A DNA stretch of 64,000 nt from Rhynchopus sp. YZ270_cl-10 (lineage: Eukaryota), in the NCBI GenBank assembly GCA_964035575.1, contig OZ037833.1, forward strand, positions 2,108,001 through 2,172,000, written 5' to 3'. How positions within the stretch are numbered: position 1 is the stretch's first letter; each line of letters begins with the position of its first letter. Both the position numbers and the translations under genes were made by a program. This document shows positions 749 through 57,487 of the stretch, in pieces. The notes beneath the pieces were generated by a model that ran no database searches, was not told the DNA's origin, and worked only from the letters and a program-made list of their open reading frames with translations.

Positions 749-1674
749 CTGGTTACCTTTTTTGGTTAACCCCTAATATGGCCAGCTCAAATTGGGTGAT
801 TGTGTGTGGGATGAGGAGGAGAAGGGGAGGAGGAGGAGGTTTTATGCTGAAGGATAGGGGTTGAAGGTCGATGAGTGTACGCAGATACCAAAGTAAAGTT
901 GATAGTGCAAACGCCTCTGCGACGCAAAGCACTGACACTCCAAAACTTTCTCAAAAACCCCTACTAAAAAGGAAGGATTGTTGAATTTTTTTTCTGAGAA
1001 AGTACAAAAGAAACTCTTTTGAAAAACTACAGATACTAAAAGGGGGGCTTTACTGGAGTAAGGGGGGTAAGAGAAAAACAAAAAGAAAGAAGGGGAGGCT
1101 TTTTTTGTTTGCAAGAAGTTTTTACTTCTGACGCCAAAAAAGGAAAAAAAAAAAAAACGAAGGAACTGAAAAAAGTCAACAAAAAATAATATAATGGAGA
1201 ATGGGTTTGGCTGGTGTATGTCCCTTAACAATATACGTTGTTAGTTGGTTAACATTTTTTTTTTTTGAGGAATTTTGCGGACGTTTTTGCATAGGATAGA
1301 AAATGGTGAATTAGCCACGCAAAGAAACAAAAAAAGGGTGACAATTACCAATTAAACCAAAAGTTCCCAAACTCCGATATTTAAAAAAAAGAGGGAAAAA
1401 ACAATCAAATACAGCTGCTCTGGACAATGAGAGACAACTGACGTTTCATAACGCGAATAACGCTACTTTTATTTTGTGGGAAACGGGCGCCTATTTTTGG
1501 GTTAGATTAGTGGTGCAAACCATTTTTCCCTGCATCATTCTGGTAACTTTTTTTTTATGCGTTTTTTTTTTCGACAAAACAGGCAAAGGGCAACAAAAGG
1601 ACAACGTTTGCAAAAAAGCATCTCGACTGAGAATTTCTCATCTTATTTTTGCTTTGCTTTGTTATTCTGCCTAA

Positions 1675-1863
1675 TCAGGGCATGTTGTCCCACACGTACC
1701 TGTCACGTGGTCCGTAGGCGTTGGTGGTGTTCGTTGCTGTCGCGTGGGCGACGAATCCTCTGCGCTCCGTGCGAGTCGAGTTCTTCTGGTCCTTCGACCC
1801 CTTCTTCTCGTCCTTGTTCCGTCCGTGACGCACACCCTTCCTCGAGTTTCTGGATCCAGACAT
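1675..1863 (-). CDS. Possible small basic protein (62 aa)
   Basis: ATG-initiated ORF in a GC-richer island, co-oriented with neighbours and preceded by 'gctaacag' and a pyrimidine tract. No recognisable domain. Confidence 0.3.
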   Translation of the reverse strand: MSGSRNSRKGVRHGRNKDEKKGSKDQKNSTRTERRGFVAHATATNTTNAYGPRDRYVWDNMP

Positions 1864-2049
1864 AGTGAGAAAGAGAAAAAAAAAGGAAATAAACTGTTAG
1901 CAAAAAGACTCTGTATTGGGGTTGATTGTGGTTATTTTTTTTCCCTCGAAAATTTTCATCAAACATCCCCTGCATTCTTTTTGCAATACTAAAAATGGGC
2001 AAAAAAGTTTGTAAATGAAACCCCACTCCCGATCCCACTCCCCTCCCCT

Positions 2050-2841: not shown

Positions 2842-4344
2842 AATGAGGTTCCTTCCAACTGAGGGGGGGAAAGAAGGTGAGATAGATAGAGGAGATGTTG
2901 TTTTAAAAAAAGGGTAGAGTTGAAATACAAAGCCCTCTCGTGAACAGTGTACTCTTGTTACGGAGGCTTAGGGGGGGGTGGTTGCATAAAATTTGGGTAG
3001 TCTTTTTAGTTTTCAGGTGTCTTTTTTTTTTTTTGGTTTTCTTTTTTAGAGTGGAGTTTTGTCTATCCAGGTTTAGAATCTCAAAAAAAAAATATACTTA
3101 AATTATTTAGAGGGGAAGGGGAGACGGGGGCAATGTATTTTTTTTGTTTTTGGAAAAAAAGGCATGGTGATTGAGTGTCGTATCTTTCCCCATGAGGTAG
3201 ACAGTCTTTCGCCTAAGTAGCAGCGCATCGTCAAGACTAAAAAGGGCTATATTTTATCTATTCTCTCTTTGCGCGAAATATTATCCCCCATATGAATGGG
3301 ACGGTCAAAAATAACGGCAATCATGACGTTGCTGTAGGTGGAAAAGTGTTCCCCCTCCTCGTTTTATGTTCTGTAACTGAACAAAGAAAAAAAGTGTGTT
3401 AGAGGTGTGGACACCCCCACAGCACACATCCTAAACGAGAGGGGGGGGAGAGGGTAATTCATGCAAGGTTCATATCCCCTCTAACTGACTGGGGGTCATG
3501 GTGAAAATATGAAAGACAGAAAATAGAAATTTCGCACAAAACACACACACGAACCAATGCATGGATCACACATCCTCGACTTGATGGTAGAATCGTGGCC
3601 TCCCGGAGTACGATTTGTCTCCCTGCAGAAGCGCGAAAGTTGCGTCTCTTTGTCTCAAAGTTTCGTGTTGCATTGAAGCACCCAAACGCGTGTTTATTTG
3701 CTGTTTCTAGTTCCCCTTTCATTGCATGAGGTTACAAATATAAACACAACCAAGCGCTTTTCCCGTACCCTTTCAACCCTTCAAAAGAAATACAACAATT
3801 GTTAAACCGAAACTTCACCTATATAAAAAGTGAAGCTGGATAGTGCAAACGCCTCTGGACACAGGCATTGTCTTTGACACTCCGCGGGGTTATCGAATTC
3901 CGTTGTGCTTTGCTGACAGAGAAACTGTAAGATAAACAAAAACAAAAACCTCCAAATAAAACAAACCAGACAGAACAAAGCGAACGAAGGGATCAATTTT
4001 TTTGTCTAGTTTTTCTCTAATGACACTTCATGTAAAGGTGGGGGAAGAAGGCCCAAAAAAAAAAATTAGGGGAGGGATTGTGTAGGAAAGACGAATAAAG
4101 GGGGAAGAAACTCATTTAACCGGAACTGTATTTTTTGTATGCTTTTTTTTGTTGGAAATTCGGGATCGTGTTAGTTAGCCTTTTGCAATTATTCACTTTC
4201 CCTTTTGTTTCAGGGGGTTTTCTTTTTCTTTTTGTTCGCATGGAGAGGAGATGGGAAACAAAAAAAAAACTGGACATCTTATTTTTTTTGTAGTGTGTTA
4301 TTGGCCTCCCTCCCCCGCTACCTCCCACCACCCTTCCCTGCACA

Positions 4345-6211
4345 CTATATTTTCACACTGTTTTCCCGACCCCAATTCCTCATAATCTTGATGATAGCAT
4401 CGACCTGGGTGTTCTGTGTGTTTCTCAACATATTGAACACATCTCTGAGCGCGTCTGTCGGTTCCTTTTGCGCGATTACCTATTCAAAGTTTTTTTTTTT
4501 TTTGAAAACTTGGTTGTATTAGTGTAGCCACCCTAGAGTGTGCTCCACTATTTTTTTTCTTCAAAAGCTGACAAAACTCTGATCCAAATCACCTTTCGTT
4601 TTTTGGTCTAATCTAATAGAAACAGAGGTACCATAATATTGTATTTCCCATTGCATTGCCTTTACATACCTGCTGGAAGACACCAATGCACGCTCCCCTC
4701 TTGCCATCCCAAAACTCTGGGTTCGGGTCAAGTCTTTCCAACACATCGAACGCCTTTGCTGAGTGGTAGAAGCACCCCACCCTGTAGCAGTCATTTGCGA
4801 TGAGAGTGAGGAGGTTGAAACTCTCATTTCTGGTGTCCATCTTGAGGTAGAGCTCCCAGGCACGTTTGGGTTGCTTCATGTGGATGTGGCAGCGTGCGAG
4901 CCACGCGAGGTAGCAGTACTCAGAACGGTACTTTTCGTTTTGGATAGCGGAGAGGGCCTGTTCAGCCTCTGACCATTGCCCGGTGTTTGCGAGGGCGAGA
5001 CCGTAGTTGTACAGGAAGGTGTCGTCCTGGAAGAAGTAGCTCTTAATTGAGTTCAGATAGATCAGCACATCCTCATACTGCTTAAGCAGGAAGAAGCAGG
5101 AGGACATACACTGCCTCCCCGGGATTGTATCGCACTCTGAATGCGAGGCGCCGACCAGTTGGAAGTACTGTTGTGCGGTTTTAATATGATCTCGGTTCCC
5201 GGTTTCCTGCCCGATGCATGCATTGACGACACCCTTGAGGACGTACTCTGGTGGGGTAAGCGGTTCGAGATCTTTGATAAGCTCATAGGCCTCTTTGATG
5301 TCGTCGTTTCTGAGATAGTAGATAACAAGGTTGAGACGTGCCTCGGGTACAATGTCCAGGAGACGAGGCAAGATCTGCAGTGCGTTCTCCCCATTGCGGA
5401 ACACCACAAGGTTGTGCTTGACCAGGTCATTCTCAACATTGTACGAAGCAGACTGCAAATCAATCAACACCTTCAACTCCGACTCCGCCGCCTTCCCGTT
5501 GTACAGCCTGTAATGATTGCACGCCTTCAAATTAATTGCTATTGCGGAGTCCTGGTGGACCTGCAAATAAACGTTCAGCACCTCAAGGGAAACATCGTAA
5601 AACTCTAGCTTATAATAACACAACGCAACGTAAACGTTGAGCGCAAGGTACTCTCTGTTGTCAAGCAGAATGCGCTTGTAGATGTCCGTCGCCTCTTGAA
5701 AGTGATTTCTGAAGTAGTGGATTGCGGCGAGGGAGAGCTGGTCTTCGAGGAGCTGTTCCTGGAGCTTTTGGTGGTAAATCATGAGTTTGTTGTCGTCGTT
5801 GTTTTTGTGCGCCACGTGGAAGAGAAGACGGTTTTGCAGGGTGTTAACTGGACCTTTGAGGGCTTCTGCCTCAGCCTCTTTGAACTGCCCCAAATAGAAA
5901 TGACAGCACGACGCGTAAATGTGTAGAATAGGATCCGCCGACTCATCGGTCAGCATCTCCGTGTAAACCTCAAGGGCCTTCAGATAGTCACCCAAATGAA
6001 ACCCACAGTACGCCAGCCACGCATTCACAGGATACCCCTCAATCGGCTGGTTCTGCTGTTTGTGGAACTCCAGCAGCGCGACCGCCCCTGTGAAGTCGCG
6101 GTTCGTAATGTAGTCATCAAGCTGCTTCGCGCGTGAGGTGTCCACCTTGGGCTTGCTCGTCGAGCTGGGTGTCGGCCCCTTTTGGCGCACCCTACCCGAT
6201 GCCATTAACAT
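4345..6211 (-). CDS. IFT56: Intraflagellar transport protein 56 (TTC26/DYF-13); exons 6211-4670 and 4479-4345
   Basis: TPR protein with TTC26 motifs ([45 protein letters not shown]). Removing the GTATGT...TAG intron 4669-4480 restores the conserved C-terminus [44 protein letters not shown]. Confidence 0.95.
4480..4669 (-). other. Cis-spliceosomal intron of IFT56 (190 nt)
   Basis: CAG|GTATGT donor and GAATAG|GTA acceptor, phase 0. Splicing restores the homologous C-terminus. Confidence 0.9.
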
Positions 6212-7479: not shown

Positions 7480-7810
7480 GTTTTTTTCTGCAGAGAAATT
7501 GATAAAAAGAGAATTTTCAAGATTCTGATAGATCCCTAGATCCCCCTAGACGTGGCAACGCTACTTCAGTAGTGACTTTTAAAAGAGAGGAACGAGAATT
7601 GATAGATGCGGTGTTCTCAAAGATAAGGGTGTTACCTCTCCCAAAGCTGTCCCGTAAGTAGTTGTTGATTGAAGGATTGTGAGGAAGGCCAAAGAGAAGG
7701 GGCTTTGTTTTGACTAGAGAAAGAAGGACTGACCTGACTGGGAGAGAGAGGGGGAAAGGGAAAGATGAACCTAATCCTCAAGGGATTAGTCATTTGAAAA
7801 GAGATTGCGA

Positions 7811-8359
7811 CAGGGAAATAGCTCCATATACCGAATTATGCGACATCGCATAATTCTGGATTTTTGGGGAAAAAAAAAAAAAAAGGGGGGAGGGATTTTT
7901 GGGCACTTTTGGGGGCCCCCTCGCCCGACCCCCAGATCTCCCAAATGACTGGAATGATGGAATCTTAAAATTTTCGCTCGCTGCGCTTGCAGAGGTACCG
8001 TACCCCTTATTTTTTTTTTTTGCCTGCGGCGCCATTTTCCTTTTTTGCTCCGCAAAAAGGGGTTTGTTGAGTGACTGTGTGGTTGTAAACCAGCATTTTT
8101 ACACCGTACCCTATTTTTTTTTCGCCTGCGGCGCCATTTATTTTTTTCCCATACGGTTAGTGGAACGTAAGGTGCAAGACCAAACTCCGTAATAAGGGAT
8201 TACATTCCGTTTTTTTTGTTATCTCGCAATTTGACCTTTCGCCTCTCCACTCAGGGAGGCTTGCGCGAAGCGCGCAACGACCGCTTTCGACCGGGCGAAA
8301 AAAAAAAATTTGTTTTCGCATAATTCCTGATTTTGGAGGAAAACCAAGCTATTTCCCTG
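7811..8359. mobile_element. hAT-like MITE family 1, copy a
   Basis: TIR CAGGGAAATAGCT and 8-bp TSD GATTGCGA. Near-identical inverted copy at 55819-56370. Confidence 0.92.
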
Positions 8360-9441
8360 GATTGCGATCAACAAAAAAAAAAAACTATTAAAAATTGATG
8401 ACAAAACAATATGTCAACGCTGTTCTCCTCTTGAAAAAGGAGGCAAAAAAAATTTTTGAAAGATGAGTGGTACATCTGGTTTAATGGGGGGATCCGCGGA
8501 TCTCTGATAACATTGCAATAATTTGGGGGGAAAGACGCGGGGTGGATAATGTTATTCTTTCGTCGAATCAACGCAGCCAAAAAATCATAATGGAATGGTG
8601 CAAATGAAGGGTTGGGTGTGATTAATTTTGGCAAAAAAGAAGTAAACAAAAGGAGAAAATGCACAGGTAGGGCGGTGAAAAGGGGGGGTACCGGATGGGG
8701 AGTAGTAGACCACAACTCACCACAAAAGAAGTGTTCACCTGAAACTAATCATTCAAAACACCTCTCATGACACCTTGGTACAATGACCGGTCCACCCCGA
8801 GCGGACCCACCCAACCATCCATTTCAATATTTTGCCCATTTTTTCTTTTTTGCCACATTTCATTGTAATAGAGGGTTATGTAGGAAGGTATAAAAGATGA
8901 ATATGTTTTGGTGAAGGCAAAAAAAAATATGAGAAAAATCTTGAAAAAACCTCACAAAAAAAAGAAGGGAAACGTTTATAAGATGATCCTAAGCGCAGTG
9001 TTTATTAGTCACCTTGGAAAGACACAAAAAAAACACAAAGAAATAAAGAAAAACACGCACAACATCAAAAAATACCGTGGTACCTGTGTAGTAATGCTGA
9101 GAATGTCAATAAATTGGACATATTCCTGACACATAAGGTCACTATACATCACGATACGGTAGATCCCTTGAGATTCAATGGACGCAAAAAATAACTGAAC
9201 AAAGAGAAATTTACATGCGAGGCAAAGGATGATTTCTCCACCTCAAAAAGAAATATGGAAAAAACAAAGAAAAATCTGAAGAATAGACCCTCCCTCAATT
9301 CCCCCAACACACAATAACGTTGATTCCTGAAACTTGAAAGGGTTTTTTCTCAAAGGTCCGGATATTATTTTATTTCGAATATTTTTTTCGGGCGTTTTCT
9401 TGTTGAGTTATTGCAAAGAAAGAGACCCTTGAACATGGTGG

Positions 9442-9568
9442 ACAGAAGATCTTACCTCAGATATGGGTGAAAAATCCCCTGTTTTTTATCTTAGATAAAA
9501 CATTTACTAAGATAAGACGATGGGTGTTTTTTGGAATAACCCAACCTCTGAGTTAAGATCTTCTGTAT
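9442..9568. repeat. Short palindromic MITE (CAGAAGATCTTA..CTCAGA); relatives ~12288-12400 and 45171-45219
   Basis: Inverted termini and a shared internal gataagacgatggg. Confidence 0.7.
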
Positions 9569-9926
9569 ATCAGGCTAGGGAAAATATTTTATGTTGACAT
9601 AGGCAAGAAGCAGTCGGTAATACAACTTCGAGAACCTTTGGGGGAAAATATTTCGCAAAAAAATTAAAAAAAAAAAATGAAGTTGTCCTACACATCCCTC
9701 ATTGCAGATGAACAGAGAAGAGAGCACTTTAATGTGCGTGCGCCCAGATCTCAGATCAAAAAAGAGAAAAAAAAAAGAACGTTGATTTGAAATACAAAGC
9801 CCTCTCGTGGCTGCGTACCATTTGTGCGTGACCAGTACACGGGGACCACGCCAGACAGCAGCCGCAGGGTATTGTGTTTGTAGCATCGACGGTCACCTAT
9901 CCGAGGACAAGGGAGAGTTTTTTTTT

Positions 9927-9969
9927 GTTGTATCGACAATCACCTACCGAGGTAGGATCTGTACACAAT
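9927..9969. promoter_or_regulatory. Family C hairpin (representative of ~8-12 copies)
   Basis: gttgtatcgacaatca-cctac-cgag-gtagg-atctgtacacaat. Confidence 0.5.
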
Positions 9970-10279
9970 TTTTTTCTTTTCTTTCCCACAGCAAACATAT
10001 GAAGCGAAACTGTACTAATACCAAATGGGTATCAACTGTGTACTGGATCATGTTAGAAAAAGGAATAAGATAAGATGATCCTAAGCCTCGTTGTGCTAAG
10101 TCATCTCAGAAAAAATTCATCAGTTTTTTTTTTTTTTTGAAAATCATCGCATACACCTAGGTTTAATGAGCAAACAGCTGAAAGGCAAACACCCTGCCGT
10201 GAGAATAAAAAAAGGGAATGAATAGATTCATTGTATTCTTTTTAAACCGAAAGGTGAGAAAAAAAATGCATTGTTTTTT

Positions 10280-10326
10280 GAAAACTTGGTTGTATTAGTG
10301 TAGACACCCGAAGATGAACTCCACTA
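10280..10326 (-). promoter_or_regulatory. Family B hairpin (representative of ~9 copies)
   Basis: Sense strand UAGUGGAGUU-CAUC-UUCG-GGUG-UCUACACUA-AUACAACCAAGUUUUC-An. Confidence 0.55.
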
Positions 10327-10667
10327 TATGTTTTTTTTTGCAAAACGTGTCACCCCTCTCTTAATCAGCTGATTTTGCTGAGGTTGACAAAATATGTCCA
10401 CATAAACAAATAAACGTTTTAAAGATGATCCTGAGCTCCACATCCTGGGCCTTATAATAATTGATGCAAACGAATTGAAGGGGTTTTGCTTAGGTGCGGT
10501 TATCTTTGCAAATGCGAATTCCTTCCATCAGACGAACTCAACAAGATGCAAAAATAATAAAAGATTACAAAGAAAACGTTGAAAAAAAAAAATGCAAAAC
10601 GCCTCACCGTACATGCGGACGCAGAGCACTGAAGATCAACAAATAACAAGCCTGTAGAGAAAAAAAG

Positions 10668-10705
10668 GTAGAGTTGAAATACAAAGCCCTCTCGTGACAG
10701 TGTAC
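10668..10705 (-). promoter_or_regulatory. Family D hairpin upstream of pyrimidine tract + CAG (representative of ~8 copies)
   Basis: Sense strand GUACA-CU-GUC-ACGAGAG-GGC-UU-UGUAU-UUCAACUCUAC, followed by C(U)nCUCUACAG. Confidence 0.55.
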
Positions 10706-10956
10706 CTTGGTACATGACCGGCTGTACCGGGGGGGTGGACACCCAACCATCGCGCAGTAGCGTACAGTAAACCCGTCCCTTCTTGCCGAAGAGACATGAA
10801 ATGGGGTCACAATTATCTTGAGATGATAATGTGTCACCATTTGGTATTGCAGGTTAAGACACATGGCATACATTTACATCTACTACTAGGAATGAGAGCG
10901 GGGAAAACCCCACTATTCAAGCCATATTAACTTAAAAGAGAAGCAAAAAAAATTAG

Positions 10957-11114
10957 TTATATACTCCAGGGAGAAATTGAAGCTTTTTTTCCCCGAGGGG
11001 GGTGCAACTCCCAAGGATGTGTATTTCCCGAGCCGAAGGCGAGGGAAATACGAATCCGAGGGAGTTGGCACCCCCCAAGGGGAAAAATCTTCAATTTCTC
11101 CCAGGAGTTTGTAA
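10957..11114. repeat. ~160-bp imperfect palindrome (foldback MITE)
   Basis: actccagggagaaattgaag...cttcaatttctcccaggagt folds around a central gccgaaggc. Confidence 0.85.
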
Positions 11115-11118
11115 TTTT

Positions 11119-11878
11119 TGGTGTGGCTGACGACCCCAAAATAGCAGAAAATAGCAGAAAATCGCAGAAAATAGCAGAAAATAGCACTTTGGGGGGTTTT
11201 TTTTGGGCTTGGTGGCTGGGTGGTGGTGTGGCTCATGATGGACGCAAACCCGGAAACCCCCTCCCACTCCACAAACGGATCATAAGGTACACAGTACACA
11301 GTACACAGTACACAGTACACAGTACACAGTACACAGTACACAGTACACAGTACACAGTACACAGTACACAGTACACAGTACACAGTACACAGTACACAGT
11401 ACACAGTACACAGTACACAGTACACAGTACACAGTACACAGTACACAGTACACAGTACACAGTACACAGTACACAGTACACAGTACACAGTACACAGTAC
11501 ACAGTACACAGTACACAGTACACAGTACACAGTACACAGTACACAGTACACAGTACACAGTACACAGTACACAGTACACAGTACACAGTACACAGTACAC
11601 AGTACACAGTACACAGTACACAGTACAGCACCTGGTCTATATCGGGACAAAATACATTTTTTTTTTGCTAAAATTGCTCTTATTTTTTACGCTGTTTTGC
11701 TCGAAAAAAACGTTGTCCTGCATCTTTGGTAGGTGTTTTGGGGACTGGCTGGGGTCAGGAGTCCCTCATTTTCCCTCCCTTTAGCAAAAGCCCAAACCAC
11801 GGCCAAAAAATAAAAAAAATCCAGACCCCCAAAATAGCAGAAAATAGCAGAAAATAGCACCCCCCTTCAGCCACACCA
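11119..11878. mobile_element. TIR element (TGGTGTGGCTGA) with AAATAGCAGA subterminal repeats and an internal (GTACACA)n array
   Basis: TIR pair. Miniature relatives occur at 35474-35526 and 58690-58788. Confidence 0.75.
11287..11627. repeat. (GTACACA)n, ~48 units
   Basis: Perfect heptamer tandem array. Confidence 0.98.
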
Positions 11879-12718
11879 ATTTTATTGCCTCCAAATAGTG
11901 CCGAAAGCCAAAATTTTAGGGGGTTTTGACCCACCGCGTGTGCACATCTGTTGGTGGGTGCTTGGGGTGCCGTACAAAAAGAAATGAAGCCGAAAACTAA
12001 AGCAATTTATAACACGACCCTAGACCTCTCTGTGATTACCAGGAGGGGTGTATACTACCTCTCACCCTTAGGCGCAGTTACAGCTATAAGGGGGAAATTG
12101 TATGTGACCCCCCGAGTAGTCACTATAAAAGAGGGAGGAAAGACACGAATCCTTTTGTATCAACCCTGTTTCCTTAAGTTCGGAAGCTATCGTTTGGATT
12201 TATCATGGTTTGCTTCAAAATAGAAATTCCTCCTGCACGAAAAAAAAATGGGTTGCTGTTGCTGTGTATATGTGCAAAAAAACACCTCGAAGATCTTAGT
12301 TTTGGGTTTGCGTTTTTTTTTGACAAAATATTTCCTCAGATAAGACGATGGGGGGGGTGGGAAAAAACCCCCACCTCTGAGTTAAGATATTATGTATACC
12401 AGAGAACAAAACAAAGAAAAGTTAGGTAAAGATGATCCTGAGCCTGTCGCGTTGAATCACCTTGAATAACAAAAAAGCTTTTTAACAAATATTGTAAGAT
12501 GAGTGCACCTCTGCATATCTTTACCAATAAAAAGAGAGGGGTGGAGAGACATTTAATCCACGAAGCAGACAAAAAAAACAACAAAAAACTGTGTGTCGCA
12601 GTGTTGTTGTAGTATACTGCTTTCATCATCATTTATTCTTTTTTCTTTCCTATTCATGTCAGAATTTTTTTTTTCGTCCTTTTTTGTCCCGATGGATCTT
12701 TTCTCTTCCGTCCCTCTC

Positions 12719-21844: not shown

Positions 21845-21965
21845 AAAAAAATAAAATACATAAAAAAAAAATAACAAAAACGTGAAGCTGATAAAGAAAA
21901 ACACTAAAATGAACAAAAAAATATATCGATCCCTTTGTAGGACCTATTGTTAAAAAAAAAATATA

Positions 21966-24104: not shown

Positions 24105-24136
<32 letters not shown>

Positions 24137-24268: not shown

Positions 24269-24303
<35 letters not shown>

Positions 24304-38794: not shown

Positions 38795-38812
38795 ATTGGT
38801 ACCCCAGAAATC

Positions 38813-38856
<44 letters not shown>

Positions 38857-45495: not shown

Positions 45496-45930
45496 TTACA
45501 GTGAAAAAAAAAAAAAAAAAAAAAAAAAGTCACACAAGGTCCTCACAACACACCCCATTTCGCTGTTTTCTTGTCCTCCCTCGCAAAGACCTGCGACTAT
45601 CTTTGCACGTCTGAAGAGCATTTCCTTCAGACATTTTATTTCCTCCGCTTCCGCAGTGTTCGCATCACGAAGACATGAAGCAAGACACTGTATTGTTGTA
45701 TTGACAAAAAAAATAGTAGGCTCGGTAGGTAAAGTTGTTTCCTTGATGTTCTCCGTACCCGGTAATACTATTTCTCCTTTAAAGCAAGCTTCGTAGGAAT
45801 AAAAGAAATCCATCCAACCTACAATGTAGTCTTGGGTACTATGTCGACAACCACACTACCTGGCACTACCTCGAGTTTTGTCAATTCGACCAGCGATGAA
45901 TGTGGCTTAGGAAGAGGACCGCTGCGTTTT
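45496..45930 (-). pseudogene. Coding-like island with disrupted frames
   Basis: Homopolymer-free stretch giving protein-like fragments (LEVVPGSVVVDIVP; EEIKCLKEMLFRRAKIVAG) in different frames. Confidence 0.25.
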
Positions 45931-48842
45931 GTGTGTGAATAGTGAAAACCTGTAAACAGACATGAAGTGAATATGGGCTTTTTGATAGTATAGAAAATAA
46001 CTAAAAAAAAACAAAGGCAAAAAAGAATCTTTTGGAGAGAAAATAACAACTTGAAAAAGATGGGCGCGTCCCACGCACACACCTTCGAAGAAAGGTGTAG
46101 GGAGAGAAAGAGAAAAAGGGAACACAAAATTCAGTTCCCATCCCATGCTACCCAGGAAGGTATTGTGATAATTGCCCATCATAATACATACACACCACAA
46201 TACAGCTGTATTGTGATGTGTACCACAGGGTAGTAAGCTCTCTCTTTCAGTGGGGGGAATTCACTTTGATCGTGTATGATATAGGGGCTGGGTTTTGCTT
46301 AGTTGATATCTGTTCCGCTTTCCACCCCTCTAAAATAGCTTTTTTTTTTTAGATTCCAAAAACCTTTGCAGGTCTTCAGAAAGAGAAAAAAAGAAAAACT
46401 ACAGAAAAAAAGGATGGTTGTTTCATAATTCGACAATCACGATCGTCAAATAATTTGTTACTGTAAACAAAACATTATGTTTTGTTGTGTAAGTGACAGC
46501 ATCGTCGTAACTTATGATGGACGTAGCTGTGTACAATATACGGGGTTTTTTTTCTTTTCTTTTTTGAACAACATTTTTTTGGCACAAATACTAAATACGC
46601 GTTGCTGTTTTGTTTGGATTTCATAAACGTTAAATTGCCAAAAAAAAAAAAAAAATCACAATATTTTAAGTATCACCTCGTTTCCAAAACGAAGAACACA
46701 AAAAAAGAAAATGAAGGACAAAACAAGAGGGGGAGATGAAATGGTAACCTTCCATATTCCAAAACTATTGGTCAGATATTAATACGTTTTTTTTGTTTGT
46801 TCTGATCAAAAGAAAATAAAGATGACCCGAAGCTTCACAGTGCTTGGTCACCTCAAAAAAAAAGAAAAAGAAAAAGGTTGTCAATGGCGATAGTTTCCCC
46901 CATTGCTCTGAGTAAGAGACTGACGGACGAATTGAATTAGCACCACATTCTCAAAAAGAGAAAAAAATCTCACACAAACACTTCTGTCTCTGCAGATCGC
47001 AGATATGCGCTCCTTTTGTGTGACTTATCAGGGTTTGGGTGATTTGCAAAAAAAAAAAAAAAAAAAGAAAAAAAAAATCCCCCGCAAAGGTTTTTTTTGC
47101 GGACGACTAAAAGAGCGTAAATGTAGCCTATCTGTTGGGGATGAGGGGGGAAAGGGTTATCACCCTAGAGCAAAAAAAAGGGGGGGAATTTTGCATTCTT
47201 CATTTTGAAAACTGTGTACAGTGCATTTCAGCAAAAAAAAAAAAAAACATTTTTTTTTTCTAGTTTTCGAATCACACTTCGTTGTAAGGAAAGGTAGACA
47301 GCAGACTTTTGTTTCGTTTGAAAGGGGGAAATAAAGAGGGTCAGAGGAAAGACATGAAGATATGGGGGATGAGGGCGGGGGGCGGGGGGTTTGGGTTTGG
47401 GTTGAGATCACTATAATGCAAAAAATCCTGCATTGGTTTTCCGTTTGGTTTTGTGTGAATAAGATAGCACCCAACTCTTAGTGACCGATAGTCGAGCAAA
47501 GAGAGCAAAGGGGGGGAATCACAACATCTCTTGGCGTCCCATGCTGTACCGACAGTTGGGCCTCACCCTCTTAGGGGTTTACATGGACGTCCTTACAGGC
47601 AGTACACTGTAGCCCTCAAGTGTAGCAGAACCGAAGTCCTGGCCTGACCGTTGTCACTGTTTAATGCTCCGGGTGCGAGCACCCTTCATAGCATGGGGAA
47701 GCCACGTCCCAGCATTTATATACCTTGCCAAGGTTTAACTTTGCATAGGGGCAGGGACGTTTAGCACCCTGAGGACAAGGGGGAGAGTCCCGCATACCCA
47801 AAAAGAAAGACAAAGGCTATGGTGAGGAGAGGCAGGGTTGCTAAAAAAAAGAAAAGACCCCCGAAGGCACAAAAAAAAACGCCCCGCATGCCCCCTCCTC
47901 GCCTCCTGTTTTGGTAATCTCTCAGGTCAAGACATCGATTCGATGAAAGGCGATTACCACGTTCATTTTATATCCATCAATAAATATGGTTGTAAAAAGT
48001 AGCAATCACCAAAAAAAAAATTTTTTTTTTAAATCCACACAGCTCACTCAGAGATCACCGTATGTGATCCATTTTTATTCCTAAAGAGAGAAAATCCCTC
48101 TTTTTTCGCACAGTTTTTTGGGGCTTGTTTTGTTCTTTGTTCCGTCTCTAAACATTGCTCTTTTTGTGACAGTGATTTTTGGCCACTCACTTTTATGGGT
48201 ACAGCCAATCGTCCATCCAGAGATGAGTTCTGTACTCATCACCCTGTTGTGACAAAGCAATACAAGTGAGGTTCTTTTTAAAATTTTGGCCCACTGTACA
48301 CAAGGAAAAAGCAGCTGACAGAACAGAATTTACTTCGCTACTGCATCTGAGCAAAAACATACCAGATAATCCATATTTCCCTCACAAAAACCGTGAAAAT
48401 TCATTTGAAAAGAAAAAAAAGAACTGTAGAATTCTCCAAAGTGGGAAGCACTGTCATTTGCACGGAACGTTATCAGGAGCTCTGGGGTTCAGTTATTGTT
48501 GTTTTTTTTTTCCACCGTAACCTACCGAGGTAGGCGTGACGCTGACTACACGGTAGTTATTGGTAGCCAGCGCTACTGCCTCTTGCTTAGTTTTGTTGTT
48601 GTGCTACTTTGCGATTTTATTTTTTAATTGAAAAGTAAAACATCCGTACAAGACCCCGTGCGTTGCCCGATGACGTGCAATACAGTGTGTTTCTTCGTTA
48701 ATCTGTCGGTTCAGTGTTGCCACACAACGATAAAGTAAATGACTTTACTTGCGGTTTCACCGTTGTCTTACAACAGTAAAATATCCAATGAAAACCACAA
48801 GTCAAGTAATTTACTACCGTCGTGCATAAAAGACAGTTTTCA

Positions 48843-49190
48843 CTAGAGAAAAAAACGTTCCTTATTTTTTATGTACAAATAATACACAAGGCTTCCTGAG
48901 AGGACACCCTGCGTTGAAGAGGGTGTTTTGGGTGTCATATAATTTGTCTTGCACAAAAAAATGCGAAGCGAAATGGAGAGAAGAACAATACTATTGAGAA
49001 TGGTCAACACTGTGTGTATGTCACCTACAAAGAAGCAATGTCCAATGAAGGAAACATGTGCACAGCATGTGTTGAAAAGAAAAATGGTAATTGATGCAGG
49101 CACCGACTGACCCACGTACGATGCCAGCCATCCCGATGAAAGCACGACAAAGAAAAATGAAAACGACATGAAGAGGACAAACCAAACCAT
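48843..49190 (-). CDS. Possible small multi-TM protein or relic
   Basis: Hydrophobic ORF directly after a long pyrimidine tract and AG. It could be an artefact of the T-rich strand composition. Confidence 0.2.
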   Translation of the reverse strand: MVWFVLFMSFSFFFVVLSSGWLASYVGQSVPASITIFLFNTCCAHVSFIGHCFFVGDIHTVLTILNSIVLLSISLRIFLCKTNYMTPKTPSSTQGVLSGSLVYYLYIKNKERFFL

Positions 49191-51320
49191 ATCTTTCAAG
49201 AAAAAAAAGAGAGAAAGAAAAGAAAAGAAACGAGAGTAAGAGAGAGAGAGTGAAACGCAATTAAAATGGGAAGGCTTTTTCCACTGTAACCTACTAATGA
49301 ACGGTTGACACTAACTGTCAGTATTATCGATAGTCGTGTCCTCTGTTGTCCCTTTTTTTTTGTTGTTGTGCTGACGAAGTGGGGTTCCTTTCCTCACTGC
49401 AACAGAGGCAGTTTCCGTTGTTCATCTGTGTGGAGGTAGGTCATTCGTAAAAAGAAAACCCCGTTCAAAGATGGTATCAGAAAAAGCAAAATAAAAAAAA
49501 GAGAAGTTGGTGTAAAGTGACCTAAACATCTTGTGTTTTGGTCACCTAAAAAATAAAAAATGTTGCAAAAAAAATATATAAAAACCCACACAAAAGAGAG
49601 AAGAAATTTGAAAGACGAGCTCTGACCTTGCGGATAAACAATATCTATTCAATCAACCGATCAGCACACCTGCCAAAAGAAAATTTGTGGAGGCAGGATC
49701 AGTGGTGTTCTTTCTGCGAATGATGGAGGTAGAAAAGCGGCAAAATAAAAAAGAGAGAAGTTGAGAACATTCCATATTTTTATATATTTGAAAAACAACA
49801 GTCGAAAAAAAAAAAAAAGAGAAATAAAATACCGTATCCATTCCCTTTTGGTGAGCAGGGTGGGTATATCTCATTTCAGCTGAGAGGCAAAAAAAAATGG
49901 ATATCTTTGAACCCTGATTTTACCTTGAGAGGGAAGGGAGGGGTGGTCAATCATCGTCTCGCATCAACAAAACTAAACAAAGAAAACTTGGACGGATGAA
50001 TATGTCTCACATACACATGCAGCCATCTTTCAAAAAAAAAAAAAAGAAAAAAAAGAAAAAAAAAATTCAAAAAAGAAAGAAACTTGAGAGTGCAGTGTGC
50101 CTGTCACGCACATCTAAAAGGATTTGCGTTAACGGACTGCAAGACTCAGGTGTGTCTTATATTGGAATGAGTGTGAGAGCGCGCGAAGAAAAGAAATGGG
50201 CAAGATGAAAAAGCAACGAGGCAGTCACCTTCACCACAAAAAAAAACAACCAGGGGTCTCAACCTGTCGCTAAAAAAGGTAGACAAAAACTGTGGACAAA
50301 TTTTTTTGTCTTCCGCTAGCGACCCCTGAAAATCATTAAAAAGAAATTATTTTTTTTTGAGTATTCCCCACGAATGTTCATAACACAAGTGTAGCCTGGT
50401 ATGAACTGTAAGAGAGGTTTTATTTTGCAAGAGAAATTTCGTGAAGCGAATCAAGTGGAGAAAAAAAAGAGAGAAAAAAGAAAAAAAAAACTTGAACGAT
50501 GAATGTGCCTCGTGCACATTCAAAAGACGAAAACGATAGAGAGAGAAATGGAAATAAAATGAACCACCCATGACATAAATATATATATTTTTTTTTTTCA
50601 ATCTGCAGCATAATTGCATTATTAAGACAACACACAAGACACGCACCTCTCTCTTCCTCACACAGAGCAAGAGATTTCTTTTTTTTACCAACAGTTTCTA
50701 TTTTAGTTTGGCTTTTTCGATGTTGAGAAGAAAAAAGGGGGTTAAAGCAATGCTCAAAAGAAGTTTGAACGAAAGAGACGATACTGAAAAAAAAAAAAAC
50801 GGGGGCTATAGTAATGGATGCAAAACGCTGTTTAGCATGCAACCACTCAACAGCTGAACACAGCTACAACCGTTGGTAGCCACAACATGCTCGTTGTTTT
50901 GAATTTTTACTTTTTTTTTTTTGGAGTAGTGTAGTTGCCTCGGTTGTGTTGCCACTGTTGTGCAATCACCACTTTTTTTTTTTTTTTTGTGTTACACCAA
51001 TCACTTTACACCTACTGGCATAAAGATCAGTACTCAATGTCGGCCGAAGCCTTTGTACTACGGAAGGTATAGACGCAGATCATCATCTGCCCCCCCCTTT
51101 TTCTTTTACACAACAACAATAACCAAAGGACCTGGTGTGACTGCAGTCTAACAATATTGGCACCCTTTGTTTTGCTACCTTAGGCGACATAATTAAAAAT
51201 GTCTGTAACACTGTTTTGTTGCTGCTTTTTTTTGGAGGGATATTTGTATCAACAATACTCACAAAGAGGTGGTTCAATGTCACCCAAAAAAGGGGCTCGG
51301 AACCACTTACCTACGACATA

Positions 51321-51449
51321 TAATGGCAGTATTATGATGGGATGCCATTTGGAATACACAAAATGCATCACAATAAACGTGTATTGTGATGTATTTTGAT
51401 GTATTTTGCGTATTCCAATGGGCTCCTCATCACAATACTGCCACCATTA
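51321..51449. repeat. ~130-bp foldback palindrome
   Basis: ggcagtattatgatg...ttggaatac / gtattccaa...catcacaatactgcc. Confidence 0.75.
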
Positions 51450-53159
51450 ACGACACACCTTATCCGACAAAACTGAGATCAGATTTTTTTTCCAAGCTCA
51501 TTCCTATAGCTAAACCAAGGCTGGGGGGGATGAGAGAGGGTGATGGGAGGAATAGTGGGCTTGGGGATTATGCCGTGATCAGGCAAAAAAAACCCAAAAC
51601 ATGAAGAAAAAAATGACACATAAACCGCAATTTTTTTGAGGATTTTTTTTTTGGGATAATTTGAACGGGAAGCGAGGGAAAACAAAAGACAACCAAATCG
51701 TGGTGAGGATATTTTGAGAAATCCTAAATAGGACAGGGGATGGGGGATGGTAGGGAAAATAATCTTGGGATGGGATGTAGGGCTGGGGCGTATGATTACT
51801 TCAAGGGGAGGGATGGGTGGGGGGGGGAGATTTTTTTTTGCAAGAAAAATAAATAAAAAACACCGTGCAATAAAAACCTGCCTGAAAGCAAGGCTCTTTG
51901 CAGAGAGAGTGTGGTTTTTTTGTACCACTGAATATATAAACATAGACCTGCAAGGGAGAGAAGAAGAAAAATATAAAAAAGTTTGGGAAGATAACCTCAC
52001 CGTTTATCTCCGTAAGACAAAGTGTGAGTCCCCTAAAAATGTTCCCTTAGTCATATTTCAAGAGAATGGCTGGTAACAAGGTGGAAAATGTGCCCCTTTT
52101 CCTGGGGATGCATTTTCCTTTATATTATGGGCATCCACACAGGGGGAAAATCTATTTTATACCACAGAGATCCAAGACGGGGGTTTTTTTTGTGAAATTC
52201 CGAAATTCGTGATGATTTTCATGGTGTAGATGGATTCATGGATTGAAAAAATTTTGTAAGATGAACCTAAACATGCTTTGGTCACAAAATAATTCCTTTT
52301 AGATTGAGCCTCGGTACTGCAAAAAAAAGTCGAGAGCTTTGCAAGGGTGAAACAAAACAACAAAAAAACAGAAAAATCTTCAAAAAATATGTGCCTCGAG
52401 GGGCCTGAAATAAGAAATGGTGAGATGAGCTTAAGTCTCGCACTGCTTAATCATCTTGACAAAATGGGGGGTGAGGGAGAAAGGGAAAGGAAGCAGGAAC
52501 TTCACGCTCCCGCCGTATCTGTGTAACCTTTAAACAATACAAAACAAAAAAAAAACTTGAATAAATGAGCCTCGCGGGGTAGGGGTTGTAATATGGCTTT
52601 CGTACACTTTCGTCATCAACAATAAAACACTGAACAAAGAGAATTGAACGTGCCTTAGTCACCTTAAATAAAAGCAAATGGCAGGGAATAATAAAGGTGA
52701 TGACAATGAAACCGTCGCACTATAAAAGGGGGTTTTTTTTTTGAGTAATGAATGAAATGAGAAGTACGGTGAAACCAAGAGAAAAATACACAAATTTTGT
52801 TGTGAGGCCATAATATCCTTTTTTTTTCTCCATTTTTTTTCGGGTCAGGGTAACACCCGACATCACCCAAGACCCCCTGCATGCGTAAACATGGTATATG
52901 TGCCTCTCCTCCGACAGCAGTTGACACCTTGCCTGCATCGAATGTCTTCTGTTGTCGAATAGAAAAAACAACACAACCAAAAATCCACATTGTCTTCAGA
53001 AGGTATACATTCCGTGTGTGAGGCAAGTCAGAAAGGGGGGGGGGAAAGGTGGCTTTTTTAGTGCAAAGACCACAGAGGTGGTCCCAAAGAACAGGAAAAG
53101 AAGTTCGGGAAAGCGTTGTACGTATGTGCGTTTTTTTTTTTTTTCTTTTGTGTGTGTGT

Positions 53160-53457
53160 CAGGCTCTCCGCTAGGATTTCCGATTTTGAAAATGTTCTGT
53201 TGATGGTCCACGTGGTGGGGTACATGCTTGCGCCGCAGGCGCACGGTACGCAACTTTTTTTTTTTTTCAACGCCCGATTTTGACTTTTTTGGGACGTTTG
53301 AGCACTCACCTCTCCATATCTTCTTCTCCTGAGCTTTTTTGACAGGTAGAACGGGTCTGAACCACTCAGCAGAACTTTTTTTTTTTTTTTTTTTTTCCCC
53401 ATTTTCAAAAAGTTCTGTTGACAATCAACAGAACTTTAGTACCTAGCGGAGTCCCTG
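53160..53457. mobile_element. hAT-like MITE family 3, copy b (inverted)
   Basis: Same TIR with 8-bp TSD GTGTGTGT. Near-identical to 31924-32221. Confidence 0.9.
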
Positions 53458-55818
53458 GTGTGTGTGTATGTGTGCGTTGTGCGTGGACTGTGTGTGTGTG
53501 GGGGAGGGACAGCGGGGGAATATCAATTTCGTTTTCCTCTGTGTACGGCGAGCAAAAATCATAACAAAAATACAAAAAAAAAAAATCCAGTGGCAGTCAG
53601 ACGAGGCTCAGCGAAAGAAATTTTCGTGTAGGGTGTTGGTGGTGAACTAAAAAAGGTTGAACATGTTTGTAAATCAAATACCACAAAAAAAAAATAAAGC
53701 CCACGCCTGTCTTCGAGTATCAGCCTGCCACAATCAACCAAAAAACAATTCACTCGATAGTGAAAAATATTTTTTTTGACCTCGAATGGTATCTCTCCCT
53801 TCGTGATCGTGGATACATTTTCTTTTTTTTTGCTGCTAGTCGAAAACGAATGAAAAGAAGTGAAAAAAAAAGAGAAAAATAGGGGAGCGGGAGGGGGGGG
53901 TTTGAAAATGCTTTTGTTATAGCTTGTACTCTTTGTTTTTGCTATTTTGTATTTGCGTTTGTTTAGCTTTTTAGATCCTTAACAACAAAAATAGGGGAGC
54001 GGGAGGGGGGAGGTTGAGCTAATACTGTGCCACCCAGCTCGTCACTGAGCGAGTAAGCAATAATAATGATCATAAAACGTGAGATGAACGTGCCTCTTCT
54101 GCACATACATCTATAAAAAAAAATGTGCTACCTAGTCATCTAGGTGGCGTAAGATGATCCTGAGCCTTACAGAGCGCAGTCTCCAGGGGGAAAAAAATAG
54201 AGGGTGCTTTGTTGTTGTTGCCGAATAGGTTGAAAGATTTTTTTTTTTGATAAATTGTTGGAGTAGTGTTGCCTCGGTAGTGTTGCCACAGTTTGTGCAA
54301 TCTCCACTGTCCAAAAAGTTTTGATTTGGATGACCCGAAACCTCATGTGCTCACTCATCACTCCCCTTGATCACATTGATAATAGCACAGCATCAGTTGT
54401 GCGAGAAAAAAAAAATTAAACCAGACGAGCAAAGCCCAAAAATCACACCAGGGACTTAATATAGGGGGTATTTTATTTTGCACGAGGAAATCGCGCACAT
54501 ATCCACCTAATTATATTTTTTTTCAAAAAAAAATCGTGAACCATCCTAACCACGACGGGGGGGGGATATGGGGGGGGGGTATTTTGTAATGAGTGAGAAT
54601 TTGAGGAGGGGAGCTTTTTGAGTACATAAAAAGGTAGTAAAAAGATTGTGTTGCAATTTTCCTTGCGAAGGAGGGGGTTTGGGGTTGGGGTTGGGTTTGG
54701 GAAAAAGAGGGAAAGACTTTCTTTTGAATCCTGTTATTTTTTTATTACGTTGTGTCAACACAATTTTTTCCCTGAAGAGGCTATCAAAAGCCGGAACCCA
54801 GGGTTTGCTGTGTGCTACTCATGTTGTCCGAAACCTTTGTACGACGCAAAGGCAAGGAACACGATTTTTTTTTTTTTTTCAAAAAAAAAAAAAGATTGGC
54901 GAGGTTAATGCTTCCTTCAAGAAGCACGTTCAGGAGTGGACAATTTCGGGAAAGAAGAAAAAGGGTTTTTTTTTGTAAGATGAACCTAAGCTTCTCTGTG
55001 TTTAGTCACCTTAATAAGTGGTGGTCGATGCAGGCACCTTGGATGCAGCGCAAAATAAAAGTTGCGATGCAAACGTCTCACCGGACACGGACAAGATGCA
55101 GGCACCCAATTCTCGAGAAAGAGAAATAAAATAAAATAAAATTAGAAAAACTTGGTACGTTGAATCTGAACTTCTGCCTATCGACAAGAAGTAGTCATCG
55201 ACCTAAATAAAGAAAGAAAGGTATGGGGAAGTGAAGGAAATACCACCTCAAACAAATTTTTTTAGCAGGTGGTGGGATAAACGTGCTCAAACCGAATGAC
55301 TCGGGGTAGCAAAAAAAATAATACTAAAAGAGAGAAAGAGGGAAAGATTTTTTGTTATTTTATTTTGAGACGATTTTCGTATTTTTTTTAAACCCTTTCC
55401 GGACGGGAGGCACTTTTATGCCACAAGAAGAAACGGCCGCCGTCCGGAAAGGAATAAAAGAAACGGTGTTGCTTTGAGTACCCCTATTTTTTTCCCCTTC
55501 CACATTGCTGTAAAATGCCGTTTTGGATGACCCCATTCAGGTTCACCCCTTTTTTTACTAACGGGTCTCCACTAATAAGCACACAATGCCCACTGTCCAC
55601 AAAACGCCTCTCCAACGCAGTTTTGCTGTTACGATAAAACAGAGACTGTGGATACACTTTTTTTCAGCGCAAGGCTTATTTTCAGACCACATTTTTTTTT
55701 ATAAAAGGGTCGCTGCCTTTTTTTTGGGGATGATCGACACTTTTGTCCAATAAAAAGCAAGGGTCAAGGAAAGAATGGGGCTTTTTTTTCCTTTGTTTTT
55801 TTTTTTTTCTCTTGAAGG

Positions 55819-56370
55819 CAGGGAAATAGCTTGGTTTTCCTCCAAAATCAGGAATTATGCGAAAACGAATTTTTTTTCCGCCCGGTCGAAAGCGGTCGTT
55901 GCGCTTCGCGCAAGCCTCCCTGAGTGGAGAGGCGAAAGGTCAATTTGCGAGATAACCAAAAACGGAATGTAATCCCTTATTACGGAGCTTGGTCTTGCAC
56001 CTTACGTTCCACTAACCGTGTGGAAAAAAATAAATGGCGCCGCAGGCGAAAAAAAAATAGGGTACGGTGTAAAAATGCTGGTTTACAACCACACAGTCAC
56101 TCAACAAACCCTTTTTTGCGGAGCAAAAAAGGAAAATGGCGCCGCAGGCAAAAAAAAAAAAATTAAGGGGTACGGCGCATCTGCAAGCGCAGCGAGCGAA
56201 AATTTTAAGGTTCCATCATTCCAGTCATCTGGGAGATCTGGGGGTCCGCGGGCGAGGGGCCCCCAAAAGTGCCCAAAAATCCCCTCTTTTTTTTTTTTTT
56301 TTTTTTTTTCCCCCAAAAAATCCAGAATTATGCGATGTCGCATAATTCGGTATATGGAGCTATTTCCCTG
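55819..56370. mobile_element. hAT-like MITE family 1, copy b (inverted)
   Basis: Same TIR, 8-bp TSD CTTGAAGG. Confidence 0.92.
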
Positions 56371-57487
56371 CTTGAAGGGTTTCTTTACAAAAAGAGAAAA
56401 TATCATTAGTGCACTGCTTGGGTATTACTTGCAGTATCCTTAGGGACCTGCAGTGTTCCATGCAACTGTGCAGAACTGAAGAGAGAGAAAAGAAAGAGTT
56501 TTTTTTTTGAAATACAAAGCCCTCTAGAGACAGTGTACCTCGCGCGCGGGGGGAAATAAGGTTTGGTAAGAATGTACTAAGCCTCTTGCTTAGCCACCTT
56601 CAAAATAAATAAAAAACTCATGGCGGCAAAGGGGCTGAGAACGACAAACGGAAACGCAGTGCATATTCTCTCCGATCTATTATGTGTTTTTGCACAATAA
56701 TAATATAAAAACACGTAATTATGCATTTCTGCTCTTTGTCAACCCAGAGGGGAGGAACGGGTTGTGAACCCGGTGTATAAATAAGTTAAACAACGAATAA
56801 TCCACCAATCCCAGGAACCTTTCATAAGACAACTTGGCTTAGAGGAGTACGAAGGATAGGGGAGTCGGGAGGTATCAAGGAGGCTGACATATATAAAAAA
56901 GAAGAATAGGAAAAGGAATAAGAAAATGAAGACCAGGATAAAGAAAAGAAAAAATTGGCAATATCTTAAATGTAACGGACGACGGCCCGTTTGCCCACGG
57001 GTCGTGTCCTGTTGTACAAAAAATATGCACTAATATTTTGTTGTAGAAAACAGTAACGCCTCTCCCCAAGGCGCAAATTTCCATTTTTCAAGACTATGCG
57101 TCTCTAATCCTCACGGAGAGGGAATTGCAACACAATAATATTATGCATGGATGTCCGAAGTAAGTAAAACAGCAAAAAATCGGCGTCTTTTTGGACCAAA
57201 TTATCACGCAGGAAGAAAAAAGATTTTTTTTTTTTGTAAGATGAACCTTCCCGGTGCTTGGTCACCTTCGGGAGGGCCTCTCAAGTAACTCATACAAATA
57301 AAAAAAAAACAAAGAAAACTTGTAGATGAATGTGCCTCTGCACAAACAAATAATTTCACTTGAAATACAAAGTCCTCTTGTGACAGTGTAAGCGAACATA
57401 AATGAAAGGTGGTGAATGTTAGGTACAGGATCAAGTTAACTACAGCCGCCACACCAACGTACCCCACCCCCCCCTTTTTTTTCCACA

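Follow-up and report, generated by a model that had tools for sequence, protein, structure and literature searches.

Co-oriented families of short hairpin repeats in the non-coding DNA of a diplonemid, possibly relics of retroposed elements

The SIDER elements of Leishmania, which are about 550 nt in length and are marked by a 79-nt signature and ingi homology, and the SIRE repeat of Trypanosoma cruzi, which is able to supply an SL acceptor, offer the nearest described parallels to the repeats considered here, together with LINEs and SINEs, whose copies usually combine a fixed 3' end with a variable 5' extent; for the stringent LINEs and their SINEs we know of no strict strand rule. As described in PMC2689281, SIDER1 and SIDER2 are short non-coding interspersed repeats of a polycistronic, trans-splicing euglenozoan: they lie mainly in 3' UTRs and mainly in the sense orientation (about 4-fold more often than antisense in gene clusters, with an antisense excess in spacers), number about 1,850-2,000 per genome, and are of retroposon origin with later regulatory use. 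In the account of PMC11957388, SIRE is a short repeat of 1,500-3,000 copies, found typically in 3' UTRs, that often contributes poly(A) sites and is part of the VIPER retroelement. Stringent LINEs such as ZfL2 bind a 3' stem-loop, which is recognised as RNA (PMC4176376). Finally, the Helitron-like HLE1 and HLE2 have a hairpin near the 3' end and make no target duplication, HLE1 being marked by a CTRR end and HLE2 by short terminal inverted repeats (11-18 nt) and a T-T insertion site (PMC11417382).

Against this backdrop, we describe at least seven families of short hairpin-plus-tail repeats (D, Dvar, K, N, E, G18 and M; 71 profile matches in total) in a window of 64,000 nucleotides, the whole stretch of DNA that was analysed. 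In their short, interspersed and non-coding nature, their presence in a 3' UTR and their sense orientation they recall the SIDERs; however, they differ in measuring 40-90 nt, in the copy number of D alone (of the order of 10^4), in falling into at least seven families and in being sense in 71 of 71 cases. SIRE offers an earlier example of a repeat acting as a source of processing signals, but no parent comparable to its retroelement was found here.

The DNA belongs to a marine diplonemid whose genes can carry cis-introns, and not to the kinetoplastid that the first-pass annotation had supposed: in homologue comparison its IFT56 gene stands at 87% to Diplonema papillatum. All long genes of the window are carried by the minus strand, and the following features bear on transcript processing:

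4360..6211, minus strand: IFT56 gene, with a GT-AG cis-intron (about 4669-4480) and both exons in register with homologues
2859..2861, minus strand: CAG, probable SL trans-splice acceptor of the 263-aa gene, with the start of a contig of run X5 at 2859
1911..1913, minus strand: CAG, SL acceptor in an A/C-rich context, with no hairpin element upstream

At 1911 contigs from runs X5 and X6 end in loose stretches of 23 and 26 letters that agree with the SL core of euglenozoans, and this is the only SL junction whose letters were read. The X5 contig at 2859 begins at the G of the CAG with 12 unmatched letters, the same pattern as that of the SL-bearing contig at 1911; the SL junction previously predicted at about 2861 thus probably holds. 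The run-contig comparison covered window positions 1-4460 and 15 of 21 contig joints there, so that a minor SL site near 3820 or 850 may also exist; X5 and X6 were taken as RNA-like solely for their SL-joined contigs.

The hairpin elements to which the text refers are as follows:

893..935, minus strand: Dvar copy preceding the GAF gene, in what is probably a spacer separating two mRNAs
2914..2952, minus strand: family D copy at the very 3' end of the IFT56 transcript, with the probable SL acceptor at 2859 following 55 nt downstream
3832..3875, minus strand: Dvar copy inside the IFT56 3' UTR
8740..8823, minus strand: degenerate D-like copy with the 5' extension (local alignment score 42 against a control maximum of 29)
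9781..9818, minus strand: family D copy, degenerate in its 5' part, from a profile match
10668..10754, minus strand: longest family D copy, with hairpin and tail at 10668-10706 and the common 5' extension reaching about 10754
31046..31078, minus strand: family D copy within an array holding three K copies (30956-31376)
56505..56540, minus strand: family D copy with a 10-A run after it and a K copy directly upstream
57358..57391, minus strand: family D copy heading a D-N-K array (57229-57394)
59172..59232, minus strand: degenerate D-like copy with the 5' extension (local alignment score 43 against a control maximum of 29)
7753..62295, minus strand: family K, 33 dispersed matches of about 45 nt with a stem-bulge-stem hairpin
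9868..54310, minus strand: families M (9 matches), G18 (6) and N (7, up to 57351) and two more E copies, from the profile search
Across the window, minus strand: family Dvar, 7 matches from the profile search

All eight sites that had been assigned to D (six) and to its variant (two) are present on the minus, gene-bearing strand; the two degenerate copies are additions to that set. The 38-mer quoted as the D sequence is exact at 10668-10705, but the five remaining copies deviate from it, with a mean column identity of 78%. The D profile returns six matches in the window (E 7e-13 to 2e-16) and none in the reversed window. Its genomic abundance can be gauged from summed contig depth, which at position 2928 reaches 1.36 million against 135-171 in the flanks in run X3 and 3.49 million against 265-518 in run X4; the ratios of 6,700-13,000 place D at about 10^4 copies per genome, an estimate rather than a true copy number. 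In metagenomes, a 19-nt D pattern occurs at 6 loci (five near-identical contigs of 66% GC and one of 43% GC) with no likeness outside the pattern, which we ascribe to chance; a K pattern has 0 matches in viral contigs.

Hairpin elements occur about once per 760 nt of non-coding DNA. They tend to sit in arrays, with 15 short gaps where 6 would be expected (p 0.0005; this count, like those of gene-start distances, strand-specific folding and tail runs, uses the 65 of 71 matches with E<0.01), and are absent from coding DNA (0 of 71 matches against 11 expected) and from the interior of longer repeats (0 of 71 against 12). A profile match places one family E element inside the IFT56 cis-intron. Copies of E and G18 are near-identical, while the mean pairwise identity of K is 64% (22 copies), a range expected of successive bursts.

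The most distinctive feature of these elements is their orientation: all 71 profile matches lie on the sense (minus) strand. Although the profile seeds all came from minus-strand copies, the search covered both strands, and a strand-neutral self-BLAST gives the same co-orientation. T runs are biased between the strands (568 against 413), too little to explain 71 of 71. True terminal-inverted-repeat elements of the window, which lie both ways, provide a control, and we accordingly reject a reading of the hairpin families as TIR MITEs:

7811..8359, no strand assigned: terminal-inverted-repeat element with an 8-bp target duplication and a sister copy at 55819-56370 in the opposite orientation

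We give roughly even chances to the view that the hairpin families are what remains of short retroposed elements of the SINE/SIDER kind and are not signals dedicated to splicing. Within it, D is likely the conserved 3' end, a weak stem-loop plus a short tail, of a retroposon-like element that is non-autonomous and about 90 nt long. Two traits of retroposons are seen for D, namely a high copy number with flanking DNA that differs between copies, and a constant 3' end with variable 5' extent; in the alignment, a 5' extension is common to the copies near 10668, 8760 and 59200. Family K, in contrast to D, starts sharply at the stem base (as judged, like its covariation, on 23 hand-picked copies). 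A run of at least five A follows E, G18 and M in 15 of 17 copies against a background of 19%. The D fold prefers the sense strand in all six copies under RNA parameters and in only one of six under DNA parameters, which points to recognition as RNA. This is the property that we propose D to share with the 3' tails of stringent LINEs and SINEs; it differs from them in that no partner LINE was found here and in having neither a tRNA-derived head nor a repeat tail.

Briefly, we advance the following mechanism. D copies would be transcribed passively within the polycistronic pre-mRNA, and a LINE-type reverse transcriptase would recognise the 3' stem-loop and copy it, often with 5' truncation, into T-/A-rich non-coding tracts. 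The six sister families would be earlier and later bursts of elements of this type. The nearness of Yn-AG sites would stem from the T-rich sequence beside the element, and single copies, e.g., that at 2914, may have been co-opted as poly(A) or acceptor context.

Several observations stand against retroposition. An A run follows D in one of six copies and K in 5 of 29, and T runs follow D in five of six, so that D has no classic poly(A) tail; the 71 of 71 sense orientation is stricter than the SIDER ratio. Target-site duplications exceed those of permuted flanks only slightly, averaging 5.7 nt against 4.9 nt (p 0.02; 52 copies with E<0.001, 6 skipped), an excess that local composition could explain; the corresponding values for D with Dvar are 4.2 and 3.5 nt. 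The classical SINE trait of a tRNA-, 5S- or 7SL-derived head is absent: ARAGORN predicts 0 tRNA genes in the window, and the 3 weak Rfam matches are all below the gathering score, with none on D. Pfam comparison of 85 of the 200 frames of at least 85 aa yielded no transposase or reverse transcriptase (3 weak matches below the cut-off), and 15 of the 21 contig joints in positions 1-4460 included no empty-site allele.

A different and rather unlikely explanation holds that the hairpins, whatever their origin, have been under selection as RNA structures acting in cis in long 3' UTRs and 3' ends, for instance by binding proteins that govern mRNA stability or by marking the poly(A) site; it may coexist with a retroposon origin in the form of later domestication. 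It draws on the absolute sense orientation, on the RNA-type G-U asymmetry and on the pairing of D, where 47 of 48 stem cells are paired and all substitutions except one keep pairing. Covariation in K, with 87% of cells paired, 7 two-sided changes and only 8 of 500 shuffles as high, likewise fits selection on RNA structure. The location of the 2914 copy, where the IFT56 transcript ends and no more than 70 nt ahead of the next acceptor (an X5 contig, 2926-3673, depth 68, extends into it), and the unusual length of diplonemid 3' UTRs reported in PMC10161547 are in keeping with such a role. However, the covariation of D is not above shuffles (415 of 500 reach it), and its hairpin is not notably stable: the two copies compared with shuffles, at -6.2 and -6.4 kcal/mol, have a z of about -0.5 and do not outperform them, while the Dvar copy at 894 folds better than D (z -2.7). 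Moreover, about 10^4 near-identical copies require a copying mechanism, and copies also lie in a cis-intron and a spacer. For the latter, the X5 and X6 contigs of the small gene upstream of 893..935 match down to 1170 plus about 40 further letters, and the GAF contig reaches 782.

It is more doubtful that the elements represent termini or minimal versions of HUH (rolling-circle, single-stranded-DNA) transposons, whether Helitron-, Helentron- or REP-like, which would have entered transcribed DNA on its exposed non-template strand. Elements of the IS200/IS605 group do insert strand-specifically into single-stranded DNA, and the hairpin about 10 nt from the conserved end, the lack of a clear target duplication, the T-rich flanks and the arrays recall such transposons, among them HLE1 and HLE2. 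Helitron ORFs are also reported in D. papillatum, in the account of PMC10161547. Yet the CTRR of HLE1 is absent from the 6 D tails, the longer D alignment, whose true 5' end is undefined, reveals by eye no terminal inverted repeat of 11-18 nt as in HLE2, and the D hairpin as DNA has about -2 kcal/mol with no strand preference.

Still less probable is the proposal of the first-pass annotation that D is a structured branch-point or enhancer that fixes SL trans-splicing at the next AG, with orphan copies, as at the predicted sites 10652 and 56477, defining non-coding transcripts or poly(A) sites. Several of its observations are borne out: the DNA downstream of D is pyrimidine-rich (Y fraction 0.73 against 0.54 in random non-coding DNA), Yn-CAG sites follow the copies at 10668 (by 25 nt) and 56509 (by 34 nt), the 894 copy precedes the GAF gene, and a probable SL junction lies 55 nt downstream of the 2914 copy. 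Acceptor-like context accompanies 24% of 62 elements (3 without an anchor omitted) against 10% of random positions (p 0.002), but 27% of 477 control T-runs reach it as well, and D itself, at 3 of 6, does not exceed that level (p about 0.2). The supposed fixed spacing gives way to distances of 64, 40, 25, 60, 34 and 4 nt from the hairpin foot to the first AG. The YTRAY branch consensus occurs in 0 of 6 D tails and 0 of 2 variant tails; it is present in only 13-16% of introns in the three Diplonemidae covered by PMC12621601. The element nearest to the SL acceptor at 1911 is 994 nt away, and the IFT56 3' UTR continues uninterrupted across the 3830 copy (an X5 record spanning 3651-4460, with 0 other letters and 0 gaps). 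Near gene starts no significant enrichment is seen (3 of 8 have an element within 300 nt against 25% expected, p 0.32), and one of two RNA-supported acceptors has a D copy, both being small numbers. A family-level trans-splicing rule is not supported. With about 10^4 copies and co-oriented elements every 760 nt or so, some D copies would lie near acceptors by chance.

Least probable of all, the elements might be relics or relatives of short end-paired non-canonical diplonemid introns spread via RNA as introner-like elements, a route that would explain the sense orientation and that their length and end-pairing evoke (compare the 37-nt median of such introns in Artemidia motanka, PMC12621601), but the 3830 copy, the one case available, is retained in a gap-free transcript contig, and coding DNA, where such introns live, has no copies. 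Readings as H/ACA, C/D-box, SECIS or tRNA T-arm structures were dropped after a by-eye check against their consensus motifs.

Returning to the retroposon-like reading, the strict co-orientation of the hairpin families is its unexplained and interesting part. One speculative answer, to which we give a low probability, is that diplonemid genomes contain many hairpin RNA mini-elements of 40-90 nt, spaced on average some 0.8 kb apart in non-coding DNA, which copy out of and into the polycistronic transcript in a transcription-coupled, sense-only manner, thereby building long 3' UTRs and seeding poly(A) and SL-acceptor contexts. Our literature search found no description of such families in diplonemids, although the supplementary repeat section of the D. 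papillatum genome paper may bear on their novelty. According to PMC10161547, the 3' UTRs of diplonemids are very long, and half of their genomes consists of dispersed repeats, many without obvious origin. Dense, co-oriented, tiny hairpin repeats would thus be a concrete source of diplonemid UTR sequence and would parallel the domestication of SIDERs in Leishmania. They also pose a testable question: does the strict sense orientation arise from the mechanism of insertion or from selection?

Profile searches run over both strands of the window recovered seven families of 40–70-nt hairpin-plus-tail repeats, with 71 of 71 matches in the sense orientation; the reversed window, used as a control, gave two matches, both to family E.

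Matches per family in the profile search, all sense
D: 6
Dvar, a variant family of D: 7
K: 33
E: 3
G18: 6
M: 9
N: 7

The strand bias of T runs (568 versus 413) cannot account for this orientation, and a looser pattern found further K/N-like copies, 41 versus 7 by strand. The short elements are absent from coding DNA (0 versus 11 expected) and from the longer repeats (0 versus 12 expected, with repeat intervals merged by eye), and they are grouped in arrays (p = 0.0005). Family K has diverged to 64% identity and still keeps its stem, with modest covariation. A runs are found at the ends of 15 of the 17 copies of E, G18 and M, and T tracts after 37 of the 48 copies of D, Dvar, K and N. By eye, where the loop meets the stem, D, Dvar, K, N and G18 all carry GAG and then G or GC, and many tails include CAAC or CAAG; together these might be a shared recognition feature.

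The six copies of D and two variants reported in the first-pass annotation were all confirmed, on the minus (gene) strand.

D and D-like copies
About 2914, 9787, 10668, 31045, 56509 and 57361, minus: D
About 894 and 3830, minus: Dvar
8740–8823 and 59172–59232, minus: degenerate D-like copies, with a 5′ extension of ~50 nt in common with the 10668 copy

The D copies are followed by G-poor, T-rich sequence, as are copies elsewhere in the genome, going by a loose-end consensus from dozens of contigs. In two runs with even coverage, summed contig depth at the 2914 copy is 6,700–13,000 times that of the flanks. The tool warns against reading this ratio as a true copy number, but it agrees with the 6–8 copies per 64 kb: D is a high-copy repeat. 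In local alignment the two degenerate copies with the 5′ extension score 42–43 versus at most 29 in controls; in each run, 61–94 contigs have loose ends 5′ of D that look like the near part of the extension. Hence, D is the constant 3′ end of a ~90-nt unit with a variable 5′ extent.

All long minus-strand ORFs of the window run in one direction (encoding a GAF protein, a 263-aa protein, IFT56, a rhodanese-like protein, an adenylate cyclase, an RRM protein and two CCCH zinc-finger proteins). The IFT56 protein shares 92% identity with a eukaryote transcriptome protein and 87% with that of Diplonema papillatum, so the host, earlier taken for a kinetoplastid, is a diplonemid. IFT56 has a GT-AG cis-intron, with homologues matching both exons in register, and the rhodanese-like gene probably has a short frame-keeping one (6510–6590, minus; by eye only). 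Trans-splicing is present: at 1911, one contig each in the RNA-like runs X5 and X6 parts from the genome, and its 23 or 26 further letters match the euglenozoan spliced leader (SL) core quoted in PMC7859406. Upstream of this acceptor in use (1911–1950, minus) the tract is A/C-rich and has no polypyrimidine tract, in keeping with a report of A-rich tracts in the introns of D. japonicum (PMC12621601). A basic 62-aa ORF (1675–1863, minus) lies in an SL-joined X5 contig of very high depth (3153, versus 3–100 in its neighbours), and a GT at ~1700 is unspliced in that contig. The IFT56 3′ UTR appears to be ~1.4 kb (2860–4360, minus), ending at most 70 nt from the next SL acceptor; the poly(A)-to-acceptor distance thus appears short, if the contig is the mature mRNA. 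This UTR holds a further short high-copy repeat outside the seven catalogued families (3640–3684), with a bin depth of ~3,100 in run X3 versus ~160 in its flanks. Downstream of the RRM and CCCH zinc-finger genes lie repeat-filled, gene-free stretches of 8–18 kb that could be spacers or very long 3′ UTRs:
15540–33890
35140–43650
44900–62900

In sum, D is a dispersed, high-copy, sense-only, non-coding repeat with a fixed 3′ end, found in at least one 3′ UTR contig. We favor, at about an even chance, a retroposon-like unit copied via RNA by a LINE-type reverse transcriptase. Briefly, the unit would be transcribed within polycistronic RNA; the enzyme would bind its 3′ stem-loop, as in the stringent LINEs; and copies, frequently 5′-truncated, would insert into homopolymer-rich non-coding DNA. 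Such binding in stringent LINEs is described in PMC4176376, and PMC10161547 reports many LINE-like and other reverse-transcriptase genes in D. papillatum. The weak points of a retroposon origin are that D has no poly(A) tail, that the target-duplication signal is faint, that the scanned frames of the window (85 of the 200 of at least 85 aa) hold no partner ORF, and that no empty site appeared among 15 of the 21 joints in contigs matching window 1–4460.

That D is instead a selected 3′-UTR or 3′-end RNA structure is unlikely. Its predicted fold has two stems, of 5 and then 3 bp, with a 2×2 pyrimidine loop between them and a purine-rich loop after the second; pairing is retained in 47 of 48 cells, with no two-sided changes, and stability in the two copies folded is not above that of shuffles. 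Quite improbable is the end of a single-stranded-DNA transposon: the fold relies on G–U pairs, such that the sense strand folds better in six of six copies as RNA and one of six as DNA.

The trans-splicing element proposed in the first-pass annotation we regard as very doubtful. An X5 contig opens with 12 unmatched letters, very likely the SL, and meets the genome at the G (2859) of the expected CAG; this probable junction stands, whereas a general rule does not. In favor of the element, acceptor-like context attends 24% of elements versus 10% of random positions; against it, control T runs do as well (27% of 477). Rather than at a fixed spacing, the first AG lies 4–64 nt from D, and the D tails contain no YTRAY. 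Elements lie within 300 nt of only three of eight gene starts or likely acceptors (p = 0.32), and the closest to the SL acceptor at 1911 is 994 nt off. The IFT56 transcript continues gap-free in X5 contigs (depths of 101 and 68) through the 3830 copy and to 2926 in the 2914 copy, the one D copy of the six checked against transcripts; the gene downstream of IFT56 has an X5 depth of 10, contig depth being a poor measure of transcript level.

Element placements
3830: mid-UTR
2914: UTR end, beside the acceptor
894: probably spacer
One E copy: cis-intron

This spread fits a dispersed repeat rather than a dedicated acceptor signal; the D hairpins are real, and the function first ascribed to them is not supported as a rule. 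An intron-derived origin is the least likely reading of D.

The longer terminal-inverted-repeat elements of the window occur in both orientations, unlike the short hairpin elements.

Longer repeats
7811–8359 and 55819–56370, opposite orientations: two copies of a 550-bp terminal-inverted-repeat element with 8-bp target duplications, presumably hAT-like going by duplication length
11280–11640 and 20525–21811: long 7-bp-unit arrays, the second inside an inverted-repeat-bounded element with a ~700-bp interior of higher GC and no Pfam match
59373–61147: composite element bounded by short terminal inverted repeats; it holds another, nested element whose inverted arms are 220 bp long (60121–61078), and fragments of a repeat family with 10 members in both orientations

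Among known systems, Helitron HLE1 does not fit D, whose tails fail the test for HLE1 ends (PMC11417382), TIR MITEs, expected in two orientations, do not fit the short elements, and D has no tRNA-like head. Closest in their working are the SIDERs of Leishmania (PMC2689281) and SIRE of T. cruzi (PMC11957388), short and partly domesticated repeats in the 3′ UTRs of polycistronic euglenozoans. The likeness is one of description, and we do not file D as a member of either, since the elements here differ in size, density and strand strictness. What emerges in this diplonemid is a set of tiny hairpin repeats, densely spaced and strictly of one orientation, and with it a testable puzzle: why all copies point with transcription.
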